From assembly GCF_013167455.1 (NCBI RefSeq), contig NZ_CP038328.1: a stretch of DNA of 64,000 bases; one strand, 5' to 3'. Both the position numbers and the translations under genes were made by a program. Position 1 is the stretch's first letter; the number at the start of each line of letters is the position of its first letter. Shown here in pieces: positions 29,142 through 55,673 of this stretch. The stretch comes from Escherichia coli O157:H7 (lineage in GTDB: Bacteria > Pseudomonadota > Gammaproteobacteria > Enterobacterales > Enterobacteriaceae). Below the pieces are notes generated by a model. That model did not search any database, was not told the origin of the DNA, and saw only the letters and a list, made by a program, of their open reading frames with translations.

Positions 29142-29456
29142 ATGCACCTGATAACTCAAAAAGCATTGAAAGATGCTGCGGAAAAATACCCGCAACATAA
29201 AACGGAGTTGGTGGCTCTAGGGAACACGATTGCTAAGGGATATTTCAAAAAACCTGAGTCATTAAAAGCAGTATTCCCATCTCTGGATAACTTCAAATAT
29301 CTGGATAAGCATTATGTTTTCAATGTTGGGGGCAATGAATTACGTGTTGTAGCAATGGTCTTTTTTGAATCGCAAAAGTGCTACATACGTGAAGTTATGA
29401 CGCATAAAGAATACGATTTTTTTACCGCTGTTCATCGTACTAAGGGGAAAAAATGA
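29142..29456 (+). CDS. higB: Type II toxin HigB (ribosome-dependent mRNA interferase, RelE superfamily)
   Basis: 104 aa; 4-nt overlap with the downstream antitoxin gene; matches K-12 ygjN/higB position between rlmG and fadH. Confidence 0.85.
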   Translation: MHLITQKALKDAAEKYPQHKTELVALGNTIAKGYFKKPESLKAVFPSLDNFKYLDKHYVFNVGGNELRVVAMVFFESQKCYIREVMTHKEYDFFTAVHRTKGKK

Positions 29457-36029: not shown

Positions 36030-42782
<6,753 letters not shown>

Positions 42783-48223: not shown

Positions 48224-48730
48224 ATGGTTGAGGATATTTTGGCTCCAGGGTTACGGGTCGTGTTTTGCGGTATCAACCCTGGGCTTTCATCCGCCGGGAC
48301 TGGTTTTCCCTTTGCTCATCCGGCAAATCGCTTCTGGAAGGTGATATATCAGGCCGGGTTTACCGACCATCAGTTGAAGCCGCAGGAGGCACAGCATCTG
48401 CTGGATTATCGTTGTGGCGTCACCAAACTGGTAGACAGGCCAACGGTGCAAGCCAATGAAATTTCAAAGCAAGAGCTACACGCAGGTGGGCGTAAGCTGA
48501 TTGAAAAAATTGAAGATTATCAGCCGCAAGCGTTGGCGATTCTGGGCAAACAAGCATATGAACAGGGATTCAGCCAGCGTGGTGCACAGTGGGGGAAACA
48601 AACGCTCAGCATTGGTTCGACGCAGATTTGGGTGCTGCCAAATCCCAGCGGTTTAAGTCGCGTTTCACTGGAGAAACTGGTTGAAGCGTATCGCGAGCTG
48701 GACCAGGCGCTGGTGGTGCGTGGGCGATAA
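48224..48730 (+). CDS. mug: G/U mismatch-specific DNA glycosylase Mug
   Basis: 168 aa; GINPGL motif. Confidence 0.92.
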
Positions 48731-48758
48731 AAAACGCCACCGAAAAGGTGGCGTTTGT
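48731..48758. terminator. Hairpin terminator between convergent mug and rpoD
   Basis: AAACGCCACC-GAAAA-GGTGGCGTTT. Confidence 0.55.
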
Positions 48759-48771
48759 GCAAAGGGACAGG

Positions 48772-48804
48772 TGCCGGGTGCGGCGTAACGCCTGATCCGG
48801 CCTA
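48772..48804. repeat. REP element downstream of rpoD
   Basis: GCCGGGTGCGGCGTAACGCCTGATCCGGCCTAC. Confidence 0.6.
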
Positions 48805-48808
48805 CCGA

Positions 48809-50650
<1,842 letters not shown>

Positions 50651-50844
50651 AAGACGGTATCCACACTTATTTCATGAGGTTGGTGTTGGGCGATTGACCC
50701 GATGTCCTTCAGCCGTTAACGCTGAAATCCAACGGTTGTTTACCGCCAACGATAATTACGAGGGCGTACTTATATATTTGCCGCTGCCTCTCAGTGCGGC
50801 TGTCGGGGGCTTCCCGATCGCTCTTCGGCACTTAAGCCGTTAAA

Positions 50845-52590
50845 TCACTTTTTCGCCAGCTCCTGGTTTAATGTCCAGAGCTCCAGGCGTTCTTCGTTGC
50901 TTAAACCATGCGTGCGCTCACGAGCGATTAACTCTTCCTGGCGCAGTTCAAGCAGCGAATCAAACATATGGTTGAGTGAGTCGGTGAAGGTTTGCTCAGC
51001 AATATTCTTATCTGCTATATCGTCCCACATCGACAGTTTTTCAAGGGTGGCAGCATTATTTGTACCACGATAGTGCTCTAAAAGTTGCCCGGTGGTCAGA
51101 CCTGGCTGGGAGAGACAAGTGTTGACCAGTTCTCTGAATAAGCCAAGTCCAGGGAGCTTATTTTCATCCAGATTCTCAAGCGGCGGGACCAACGTCGCTA
51201 ATTCTGGATTTTGCACCAGCAACCCTATAAGTATACGCATGGTCGTGCGTTTTAGCTGCGGAACAGGGCGAGAAACGCCGCTCTCTGCCGCTTTTGGCAT
51301 TAATCGTTCAAGCTGGCTGTCATCAAGTATGCCTAATTTGTTGCCTAATTCCTGACGAAGATATATTCGCAGCGTTTCGCCCGGCACTTGCGATATCAAT
51401 GGCAGTGCCAGCGTACTCAAACGTGCGCGCCCGTCAGGGGTACTCAGATCAACTTGCGGCATCAGGCTGTTAAACAGAAATGCGGAAAGCGGCATCGCCT
51501 GCTCCATCCGCGCTTCAAACGCTTCTTTACCTTCTTTTCGTACCAGCGTGTCAGGGTCTTCGCCATCAGGCAAAAACATAAAGCGTAGCTGACGGCCGTC
51601 TGTCATGTAAGGCAGCGCCGTTTCCAGCGCTCGCCATGCGGCATCACGGCCTGCACGGTCGCCGTCATAACAGCAAATGACATTGTTGGTCGCGCGGAAC
51701 AACAGTTGTATGTGATCGGCGGTGGTTGACGTACCTAACGACGCAACGGCGTAATTAATGCCGTATTGCGCCAGCGCCACCACGTCCATATAGCCTTCGA
51801 CCACAAGCAGACGATTGGGTTCAGCGTTATCCTGCTGCGCTTCATAAAGACCGTAAAGCTGGCGGCCTTTATGGAAAATGTCTGTTTCCGGCGAGTTCAG
51901 GTATTTGGGGGTATCGTTGCCCAGCACACGCCCGCCAAAACCAATCACCCGACCGCGTTTATCGCGAATGGGGAACATCACCCGCTCGCGGAAACGATCG
52001 TAACTGCGTCCCTGATCGTTAGTGACCAACATCCCCGCATCAATCAATGACTGGCGATTTTCTGGATTGCCGCCAAACCGCTTCAGGACGTTGTCCCAGC
52101 CGGGAGGCGCAAAACCAATCGCAAAGCGAGCGATAACCTCGTGGCTTAATCCGCGTTTTTCCAGATACTGGCGCGCAGACGTGGCAACAGGTTGTTGTAA
52201 AGATTGTTGGTAAAACGTATTCAGACCGTCCATCAACTGATAAAGCGTTTGCCGCTGATGGCGCTCGATCTGGCTGGGGCCGCTACCTGCTTCAAATGGC
52301 ACTTCAAGATTGTGCATTGCCGCCAGCTCTTCGACCGTTTCGACGAACTCAAGCTTGTCGTAGTTCATCAGGAAGTCGATCGCGTTGCCGTGCGCGCCAC
52401 ATCCAAAGCAGTGGTAAAACTGTTTCTCACCGTTAACGGTGAAGGACGGGGTTTTCTCGTTGTGGAATGGACAACACGCGTGGAAATTCTTGCCCTGCTT
52501 TTTCAGCTTCACACGGGCATCGATCAGATCGACGATGTCAGTGCGTGCCAGCAGATCATTAATGAATACGCGTGGGATTCGTCCAGCCAT
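50845..52590 (-). CDS. dnaG: DNA primase DnaG
   Basis: 581 aa; zinc-ribbon CPFHNEKTPSF and TOPRIM motifs. Confidence 0.95.
   Translation of the reverse strand: MAGRIPRVFINDLLARTDIVDLIDARVKLKKQGKNFHACCPFHNEKTPSFTVNGEKQFYHCFGCGAHGNAIDFLMNYDKLEFVETVEELAAMHNLEVPFEAGSGPSQIERHQRQTLYQLMDGLNTFYQQSLQQPVATSARQYLEKRGLSHEVIARFAIGFAPPGWDNVLKRFGGNPENRQSLIDAGMLVTNDQGRSYDRFRERVMFPIRDKRGRVIGFGGRVLGNDTPKYLNSPETDIFHKGRQLYGLYEAQQDNAEPNRLLVVEGYMDVVALAQYGINYAVASLGTSTTADHIQLLFRATNNVICCYDGDRAGRDAAWRALETALPYMTDGRQLRFMFLPDGEDPDTLVRKEGKEAFEARMEQAMPLSAFLFNSLMPQVDLSTPDGRARLSTLALPLISQVPGETLRIYLRQELGNKLGILDDSQLERLMPKAAESGVSRPVPQLKRTTMRILIGLLVQNPELATLVPPLENLDENKLPGLGLFRELVNTCLSQPGLTTGQLLEHYRGTNNAATLEKLSMWDDIADKNIAEQTFTDSLNHMFDSLLELRQEELIARERTHGLSNEERLELWTLNQELAKK
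51005..51048 (-). promoter_or_regulatory. Candidate sigma-32 heat-shock promoter (Phs) for rpoD embedded in the dnaG 3' coding region
   Basis: Minus-strand CCACCCTTGAAAAACTGTCGATGTGGGACGATATAGCAGATAAG contains the CTTGAAA -35 element; recalled from the literature, not computed. Confidence 0.45.
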
Positions 52591-52700: not shown

Positions 52701-52955
<255 letters not shown>

Positions 52956-54209: not shown

Positions 54210-55673
54210 TTAAAGCAACACCACGGGCATCCACAGTAAGCCGGTAATCACCAGCAATACGAGGAATATCAGCCCAAAAATCGCCCCCAGTCGCCAGTAA
54301 TCCGCCGTTGGCAGATAACCACTGCCGTAGTAAATCGGACTGGGGCCGGTGGCGTATGGTGTAAGAATGCTCCCCAGACCAATTGCCGCACCAACCATCA
54401 GGCAGAACACCGGCAGCGGGATTTCCGGCATCGCCAGCGCAGCGGCAATCATCATCGGTGCGAGAGCGGAGGTATACGCCGTGGCGCTGGCAAAAAAGTA
54501 GCGCAGTAGATAAAACACCACAATCAACGCCACCATCACCATCGTTGGCGAATAACCGCTTAAGCTGCCTGCTAACAGTTTGCCAAACCAGCTAATAAAA
54601 CCGGTGTTGTTGAGTCCGGTCGCGAGGGTGATAAGCGAGGCCAGCCAGAAGAAAACGTTCCACGCCGCTTTATTACTGACAATATCGTCCCAACTGATAA
54701 TGCGCAGAAGCAGCATCAGCGCCACCACGCTGTAACCGACCATCGCGGCATCGATATAATCACCGCCGAAAATCCACAGCACCAGCGCGCCTACCATCAG
54801 CCCCAGCATCCGTTTTTCACGCGAACAGAGCGGGCCCATTGCCTGCAGTTCCGTCTCTGCCCAGCGCGGCACCTGATCGCCTGACTTCAGTACAGGCGGG
54901 TACAGCACGTAAGCCAGCCAGGGAACCAGCAGGACCAGTAAAATACTGAGCGGCAACATCCCGAGGAACCAGTCGCCCCAACTCAGCGTGGCGTGAGATG
55001 CGCTTTTCATCAGTCCAATTAACAGCAAGTTAGGAGCCATCGCCGTCAGGAAAATGGCGCTGGTCACGCAATCGGCAACAATCCCCATCCACATGATGTA
55101 CGAGCCAATACTGCGCGAACTGCTGTCGTTTGGTTGTGATTGATAGAGCGGCGGCAGGTTACGGATGATGGGATAGATAATCCCCGCACCACGCGCCGAG
55201 TTGGACGGTGTGACAGGTGCCAGGATCAGCTCGGAGAACATCACCGCATAGCCAAGAAACAGCGTGCGATGCCCCATCTTTTTCACCAGAATCAGCGCGA
55301 TACGTCGCCCCAGCCCGGTTTTTTCATAGCCTGTGCCAAACATAAAGGCGGCGAAAATCAGCCAGATAACCGAATTAGAAAAACCGGAAACGGCCCACGA
55401 GAGGGATTTTGCAGTGAATTTAAAGCCTGGCTGAGCGAGCTGCTCCGGGCTGAACAGCAGCCAGGGAGAGAGTATGGCGATGATGGAGATACCCACCATC
55501 GCCACCACGGCACCCGGCACGGGTTCGAGGATCAGTCCAACGATTACGCCAGTAAAAACGGCAAAGTAGAGCCAGGTATGACTCTCCAGCCCTGCGGGAA
55601 CCGGAATTAGAGCAATAATGGCGATGACCGCCAGCGGCGCAAGGTATCGCCACCATTCAGTGGAAGGTTTCAT
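54210..55673 (-). CDS. ttdT: L-tartrate/succinate antiporter TtdT
   Basis: 487 aa DASS-family transporter. Confidence 0.9.
   Translation of the reverse strand: MKPSTEWWRYLAPLAVIAIIALIPVPAGLESHTWLYFAVFTGVIVGLILEPVPGAVVAMVGISIIAILSPWLLFSPEQLAQPGFKFTAKSLSWAVSGFSNSVIWLIFAAFMFGTGYEKTGLGRRIALILVKKMGHRTLFLGYAVMFSELILAPVTPSNSARGAGIIYPIIRNLPPLYQSQPNDSSSRSIGSYIMWMGIVADCVTSAIFLTAMAPNLLLIGLMKSASHATLSWGDWFLGMLPLSILLVLLVPWLAYVLYPPVLKSGDQVPRWAETELQAMGPLCSREKRMLGLMVGALVLWIFGGDYIDAAMVGYSVVALMLLLRIISWDDIVSNKAAWNVFFWLASLITLATGLNNTGFISWFGKLLAGSLSGYSPTMVMVALIVVFYLLRYFFASATAYTSALAPMMIAAALAMPEIPLPVFCLMVGAAIGLGSILTPYATGPSPIYYGSGYLPTADYWRLGAIFGLIFLVLLVITGLLWMPVVLL

Follow-up and report, generated by a model that had tools for sequence, protein, structure and literature searches.

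A promoter within a gene: an element in dnaG that matches the rpoD heat-shock promoter of Escherichia coli, and its conservation across Enterobacterales

The gene for the housekeeping sigma factor of Escherichia coli, rpoD, is known to be served by a heat-shock promoter, PHS, that lies inside the upstream gene dnaG (Taylor et al. 1984; Cowing et al. 1985), and its presence there has long been textbook knowledge and is no finding of the present work. Later papers that cite Taylor 1984 place the promoter inside dnaG and directly upstream of rpoD: PMC2824700 describes a heat-inducible promoter directly upstream of the E. coli sigma-factor ORF and within the dnaG coding sequence, and PMC13374519 counts four rpoD-controlling promoters inside dnaG, with reference to Taylor 1984, Dartigalongue 2001 and Wade 2006. 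According to PMC3415461, recognition of the promoters of rpoD is by sigma-70, sigma-32 or sigma-24.

Several other systems resemble this arrangement to a varying degree. The canonical sigma-32 promoters of E. coli, namely those of dnaK (P1 and P2), groES, htpG, grpE, ibpA, hslV, lon, clpB, clpP, htpX, rlmE-ftsH and fxsA, share the two-block organisation CTTGAAA-N12-16-CCCCATNT and are found immediately ahead of the gene that they serve, in the 250-nt stretches searched, whereas the rpoD site is located within a coding sequence and is followed by a leader of ~360 nt. In Pseudomonas aeruginosa, which belongs to a different bacterial order, rpoD likewise possesses a sigma-32 heat-shock promoter together with a constitutive promoter (Fujita et al. 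1993; Aramaki and Fujita 1999), and use of the former by RpoD at 42 °C has been reported (reviewed in PMC13104619). In Gram-positive operons, exemplified by sigA of B. subtilis and by the sigB-dependent sigA promoter of S. epidermidis (PMC2824700), a stress-sigma promoter also lets the housekeeping sigma factor be expressed independently of the genes that precede it in the operon, but these internal promoters use sigma-B or sigma-H and have unrelated sequences, and the resemblance to the rpoD PHS is functional only.

The element considered here lies in a window of 64,000 nucleotides, by which we mean the whole stretch of DNA that was analysed. Its DNA is chromosomal and belongs to E. coli: the 801 bases around the element occur with 100% identity in many RefSeq chromosomes of this species, and the same region is matched in 5,425 of the 5,426 complete E. 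coli genomes. The K-12 MG1655 sequence is identical throughout the element, and the 66 bases around the site are the same in 5,294 of the 5,425 E. coli genomes; the single variant that was looked at differs 3′ of the −10 block. An earlier note, made from the letters of the window, had pointed to a sequence with CTTGAAA on the minus strand between positions 50845 and 51100, and the corresponding 33-mer, CCCTTGAAAAACTGTCGATGTGGGACGATATAG, is indeed present there as one exact copy in the window (51015..51047, minus strand, 0 mismatches); it is absent from 100 shuffles, which is trivial at a length of 33 nt. The 33-mer covers dnaG codons 515-526 (T-L-E-K-L-S-M-W-D-D-I-A) and, counted back from the final base of the dnaG stop codon, occupies nt 171-203; its assignment in the note to the last 200 nt of dnaG was right to within 3 nt. 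The ATG of rpoD, at 50650, follows 365-397 nt downstream on the same (sense) strand, the distance being 395 nt when measured from where the −35 element begins, and the intergenic region between dnaG and rpoD measures 194 nt. The features of the locus are collected in Table 1.

Table 1. Genes of the operon and parts of the dnaG-internal element, in window coordinates.
Feature	Position	Strand	Basis or content
rpsU (S21)	52701..52916	-	ORF; NCBIfam TIGR00030; RefSeq annotation
dnaG (DNA primase), promoter host	50845..52590	-	581-codon ORF; NCBIfam TIGR01391, 504.7 bits; RefSeq annotation
rpoD (sigma-70), gene served by the promoter	48809..50650	-	613-codon ORF; NCBIfam NF004208, 940.5 bits; RefSeq annotation
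−35 element CTTGAAA	51039..51045	-	codons Leu516 (CTT), Glu517 (GAA) and first base of Lys518
14-nt spacer AACTGTCGATGTGG	51025..51038	-	between the −35 and −10 blocks
−10 element GACGATAT	51017..51024	-	Asp523, Asp524 and first two bases of Ile525
Predicted transcription start	51009..51011	-	inferred; about 6-8 nt 3′ of the −10 block
Predicted PHS leader, ~360 nt	50651..51008	-	last ~160 nt of dnaG coding sequence, stop codon and 194-nt intergenic region

We consider the element, with a probability of roughly 93%, to be PHS, the promoter through which sigma-32 (RpoH) directs heat-shock transcription of rpoD in the rpsU-dnaG-rpoD operon, situated inside the 3′ part of dnaG. Organism, gene pair, dnaG-internal location and sigma class are all the same as those of the published promoter, meaning that the comparison is with the element itself, and no difference between the two is detectable, the identity at the level of single letters being probable. 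That the 33-mer equals the published PHS is supported by its location, by the midpoint of a sigma-32 ChIP region and in part by the PHS sequence printed in Cowing et al. 1985, which reportedly contains the CCCTTGAAAA...GACGATATAG string of this 33-mer.

The 33-mer parses as CTTGAAA, 14 nt and GACGATAT, with a full match in the −35 block, a typical spacer and a weak −10. The −35 block agrees with the sigma-32 −35 consensus at 7 of 7 positions and is thereby a perfect −35 element; it is a heptamer and not the hexamer that it had been called. The spacer of 14 bp in E. coli falls inside the sigma-32 range of about 11-16 bp (typically 13-15). The −10 block agrees with the consensus CCCCATNT at only four of the seven specified positions, the matching ones following the pattern xAC-xAy-AT; the consensus used here was taken from PMC6699477. 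When placed beside the canonical sigma-32 promoters, the rpoD −10 is among the weakest matches, and it most resembles the site TACGATGT of htpX from the same scan.

A sigma-32 matrix scan, suggested in the earlier note as a check, singled out the same site. For training, the best CTTGAAA-N12-16-CCCCATNT site was taken from the upstream region (250 nt) of each of 12 canonical K-12 heat-shock genes, all of these sites matching 11-14 of the 14 consensus positions, and the matrix was composed of two blocks and a spacer term built on 13 E. coli heat-shock sites, with rpoD excluded. The candidate upstream of rpoD scored 16.8 bits, the highest value among the 127,930 positions of the two window strands, and this is within the range of 6.0-22.6 bits that the training promoters attained when left out one at a time, htpX being the lowest of these at 6.0 bits. 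Markov-1 random sequences of 64 kb, on the other hand, contain a mean of 0.95 sites that score at least as high as the candidate, and since such a sequence thus yields about one equal match, the matrix score is not significant across the window and was rejected as proof by itself. The score gains its significance through the location of the site upstream of rpoD: rescaling of the random-sequence rate, as opposed to a separate computation, gives an expectation of ~0.004 such sites for the sense strand over the ~500 nt that precede rpoD. The region also holds weak matches of terminator-like and sigma-70-like type, which are no more frequent than in the background.

The decisive evidence for the element is the conservation of synonymous sites across species. 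Enterobacterales loci, 120 in number, were gathered by a degenerate DNA pattern on the N-terminus of rpoD, which makes the choice of loci independent of dnaG, and 104 species (the window included) could be aligned codon by codon over the final 150 codons of dnaG; a comparison of the whole dnaG gene comprised 77 species and 406 degenerate conserved codon columns. The species are related and the counts are therefore not independent events, with the saturated neighbouring synonymous sites serving as an internal control. In these 104 species, CTTGAAA is the longest run with at least 95% nucleotide conservation within the 450 nt at the end of dnaG; the heptamer reads CTTGAAA in 102 of them, and ATTGAAA and GTTGAAA once each. 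Only three of the 71 conserved degenerate columns in the last 150 codons have zero codon entropy, and these are Leu516 (CTT in 102/102), Glu517 (GAA in 104/104) and residue 523 (AAC in 80/80), the third base of codon 523 being C in all 104 species (xAC). The remaining leucine columns among the 71 show codon entropies of 1.3-2.35 bits, including Leu519, which is located just three codons further on. When the 406 columns of the whole gene are considered in the 77 species, the same three codons are again the only ones with zero entropy, all of them fall within the two promoter blocks, and of all 8-codon segments of dnaG the one with the strongest synonymous constraint starts at codon 516, at the first base of the −35 element.

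The spacer is 14 nt long in 103 of the 104 species, and its sequence drifts at synonymous sites except for the non-degenerate Trp522 (TGG). The −10 block occurs in the clade variants AACCATAT, AACCACAT, AACGATAT and GACGATAT, in all of which xAC-xAy-AT is kept, and the AACCATAT of other families is closer to the consensus CCCCATNT than is the GACGATAT of Enterobacteriaceae. In every one of the 104 species no position in the up-to-1 kb upstream of rpoD scores better with the sigma-32 matrix than the aligned site (13.7-23.1 bits), at a distance of 350-643 nt between the first −35 base and the rpoD ATG. The view of the earlier note that this is the internal Phs of the operon is supported by the matrix rank, the top matches in 104 of 104 species, the ChIP midpoint discussed below and the placement in the literature, and the proposed overlap of a regulatory signal with coding sequence is borne out by both blocks lying within dnaG codons, with zero synonymous variation at codons 516, 517 and 523. 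A second stretch of synonymous constraint in dnaG was observed at ~51258..51226.

Published genome-wide data were related to the window by converting a window position w to NC_000913.3 as 3,263,697 − w, a conversion that was checked and that puts the predicted start in K-12 at about 3,212,686-3,212,688. The older K-12 numbering used in part of these data presumably differs from NC_000913.3 by an offset of 1,978, a value consistent with the neighbouring region SigD_1280, which it places on the rpsU promoters. In this older numbering, the sigma-32 ChIP-chip region SigH_312 extends over 3,210,327-3,211,076 (Cho et al. 2014, PMC3923258, Table S2). With this offset, its midpoint converts to window position ~51017, where the −10 block ends on its 3′ side, in a region that is 750 bp wide and not specific to sigma-32, given that the same consolidated region has entries for sigma-70, E, F, N and S (PMC3923258). 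The RNA polymerase region RNAP_1490, which spans the stretch of the predicted leader, has occupancies of 1.65, 1.61 and 1.47 in exponential growth versus 2.67, 3.03 and 2.85 after heat shock (PMC3923258, Table S3), and the rise is paralleled at the dnaK promoter, where occupancy goes from 0 to about 3.2 on heat shock (PMC3923258). Sigma-32 binding and heat-raised RNA polymerase occupancy over the region are documented by published data; the exact start nucleotide and the contact of sigma-32 with precisely these two blocks are inferred. A search of the Cappable-seq supplement (PMC4782308) in both K-12 numberings gave no start coordinates in the vicinity of the site. The Salmonella RpoH ChIP-exo tables (PMC11548764), searched by gene name, have no entry called dnaG, and an in-vitro genomic SELEX study has dnaG under RpoS only and not under RpoH. 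Full-text literature searches for the promoter string and its sub-strings returned only unrelated papers and one on the helicase-binding domain of DnaG (PMC3632105).

An alternative reading of the site would be that of a mainly sigma-70 promoter, with TTGAAA as the −35 and a −10 formed either by GATATA, at a spacer of 17 nt, or by TATAGC, at one of 19 nt, for which sigma-32 would be secondary or irrelevant. TTGAAA agrees with TTGACA at five of six positions, but a sigma-70 consensus scanner made no call at the site, GATATA lacks the key final T and most other families read CACATG or CATATG in its place, and the C that precedes TTGAAA, which is typical of sigma-32, is retained in 102 of the 104 species. 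The site is overlapped by a sigma-70 ChIP region, the centre of which, however, is about 190 bp upstream, and the signal there is weak (~0.45 versus ~3.4 at the rpsU promoters; PMC3923258), and the occupancy of RNA polymerase increases on heat shock. Wade 2006, which concerns the overlap of sigma factors, is also among the sources that PMC13374519 names for promoters inside dnaG, and the P. aeruginosa rpoD PHS is itself transcribed by RpoD at 42 °C as well (PMC13104619). By analogy with this reported case, some use of the dnaG-internal site by sigma-70 is conceivable; as the principal function, a sigma-70 promoter is nonetheless unlikely, and the reading was largely rejected on account of the poor −10, whose conservation does not follow the sigma-70 pattern, and of the weak sigma-70 ChIP signal.

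The synonymous conservation could also reflect a constraint on the dnaG mRNA at the level of RNA or translation, such as a structure, an RNase E site or codon context, in which case the sigma-32 match would be coincidental. Selective RNase E cleavage of dnaG mRNA is known, as cited in PMC2824700, and the second constrained stretch mentioned above makes other embedded signals plausible. The constraint at the present site, in contrast, sits exactly on the −35 and the −10 and leaves a free 14-nt spacer of fixed length between them, and two short constrained blocks around a spacer of this kind are the signature of a promoter and not of an RNA helix. An Rfam search of the site and leader gave no known RNA family, and both the sigma-32 ChIP region and the rise of RNA polymerase upon heat shock centre at the site; we regard an RNA-level explanation as very improbable. 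Still less credence is due to a chance consensus match devoid of function. The frequency of about one equal matrix score per random 64-kb sequence speaks for it, but the synonymous positions are invariant in 104 species in which the C-terminal domain of DnaG has only 47-98% identity with that of E. coli, and the ChIP evidence and the literature likewise speak against it. The conservation pattern effectively excludes both RNA-level constraint and pure chance.

The sigma-32 promoter would be expected to function as follows. On heat shock sigma-32 accumulates, and the RNA polymerase carrying it would recognise CTTGAAA (51045..51039) and GACGATAT (51024..51017), 14 bp apart, and start transcription at ~51010, giving rise to a monocistronic rpoD mRNA with the ~360-nt leader. 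The synthesis of sigma-70 would then increase without more S21 or primase being made, uncoupled from the upstream genes of the operon. Since the promoter bases also encode DnaG residues 516-518 and 523-525, they would serve two purposes, and selection appears to have purged synonymous changes from both blocks across Enterobacterales. The locus is a classic example of coding sequence that also carries a regulatory signal, which would allow for resupply of sigma-70 during and after heat shock independently of S21 and primase. Confirmation of the rpoD PHS, which shows that a real embedded promoter could be recognised from raw sequence, settles no open question, and what is modestly new is the order-wide quantification of the synonymous constraint, together with the suggested limits that the promoter sets on DnaG residues 518 and 523-525. 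In a comparison of ~100 Enterobacterales species, synonymous constraint in dnaG is nowhere stronger than in the two promoter blocks, and this provides a clean, reusable signature for promoters hidden in genes.

The amino-acid sequence of DnaG itself may bear traces of the promoter. Residue 518 is either Lys (AAA or AAG) or Thr (ACN), and its first base is always A, by which CTTGAAA is preserved. Residues 523-525 differ by clade and are Asp-Asp-Ile, Asn-Asp-Ile or Asn-His-Met, while the nucleotides hold to xAC-xAy-AT in each case. The Ile525 codon is always ATA, a rare codon in E. coli. It is possible, if doubtful, that the needs of the rpoD heat-shock promoter limit which amino acids can occur in this part of the C-terminal domain of DnaG, the helicase-binding domain according to PMC3632105, and that the promoter thereby shapes the protein too. 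If so, the weaker −10 of Enterobacteriaceae, GACGATAT as opposed to AACCATAT elsewhere, could represent a trade-off between protein and promoter that tunes the heat induction of rpoD in each clade.

Across Enterobacterales, the second-ranked stretch of synonymous constraint in dnaG covers DnaG residues 445–456. The Leu446 codon is CTA in 74 of the 102 sequences and the Ile453 codon is ATA in 83 of 91, with ATA likewise kept at Ile455; both CTA and ATA are rare codons in E. coli. The stretch contains a −10-like TATACT on the minus strand, and no good −35 element to pair with it was found within the stretch. The sigma-70 ChIP region SigD_1281 is centred at window position ~51205 (Cho 2014, PMC3923258), and the constrained stretch may be considered a candidate for one of the reported internal sigma-70 promoters of rpoD within dnaG.

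In the same ChIP-chip study, six sigma factors (sigma-70, E, F, H, N and S) have binding entries in one consolidated region, within which the sigma-E and sigma-S midpoints map to window positions ~51104 and ~51174, respectively (Cho 2014, PMC3923258). Such an overlap fits the several promoters reported inside dnaG; it could also be a product of the low resolution of ChIP-chip. Sigma-70-like sites in the region, of which one lies next to the rpoD heat-shock promoter PHS, are at the shuffle background, with 2 found versus 1.7 expected.

Features in and around dnaG and rpoD and further sigma-32 matrix hits in the window
Feature	Position	Strand	Sequence	Remark
Constrained dnaG stretch	51226..51258	−	CAGCTAAAACGCACAACCATGCGTATACTTATAGGG	consensus
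Six-sigma consolidated region	~50620..51600			dnaG 3′ end and rpoD 5′ end; older K-12 3,210,164-3,211,152
Sigma-70-like site	51055..51082	−	TTTAGA-16-AATAAT	9/12 positions; directly upstream of PHS
Sigma-32 matrix hit	29297..29328	−	ATTGAAA-13-CCAGATAT	15.8 bits
Sigma-32 matrix hit	36987..37021	+	GTTGAAG-16-CCCCAACA	15.3 bits
Sigma-32 matrix hit	55249..55279	+	CAAGAAA-12-CCCCATCT	14.4 bits
Sub-threshold Rfam match, naRNA4 (RF02564)	48728..48802	−		directly downstream of rpoD stop codon

The −10 block of PHS (window 51017..51024 and the orthologous positions in the Enterobacterales loci L011–L130) varies with clade. The sequences nearest to E. coli, such as those of Salmonella, Kosakonia, Trabulsiella and similar genera, carry GAC GAT ATA, and Photorhabdus, Xenorhabdus and Morganella have AAC GAT ATA, while the AAC CAY ATG of Yersinia, Serratia, Erwinia, Pantoea and Pectobacterium is nearer to the sigma-32 consensus. 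In the same comparison, every isoleucine at DnaG residue 525 is encoded by ATA with no exception. Within E. coli, 131 of 5,425 genomes differ by 1–3 bases in the 66 nt around PHS. In the one variant examined, that of strain N96 (L131), an AAG to AGG change at window position ~51006 replaces DnaG Lys528 with Arg; the change falls a few nucleotides beyond the predicted start, at a distance of ~10 nt from the −10 block on its downstream side, and touches neither promoter block.

Seven loci (L097, L018, L033, L036, L040, L052 and L061), in which the ORF that ends ahead of rpoD has fewer than 150 codons, were excluded from the conservation analysis. The alignment of one of these, L097 from Enterobacter sp. 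EA-1, stops directly after the −35 codons. Frameshifting or misassembly may account for the short ORFs, as may a genuine disruption of the 3′ end of dnaG.

The three further hits of the sigma-32 matrix scan are the next-best in the window after PHS, and scores of their magnitude are expected by chance. Finally, the naRNA4 match (E = 0.008) reaches 31.4 bits, short of the gathering score of 59.5, and the sequence downstream of rpoD may represent a repeat or a terminator.
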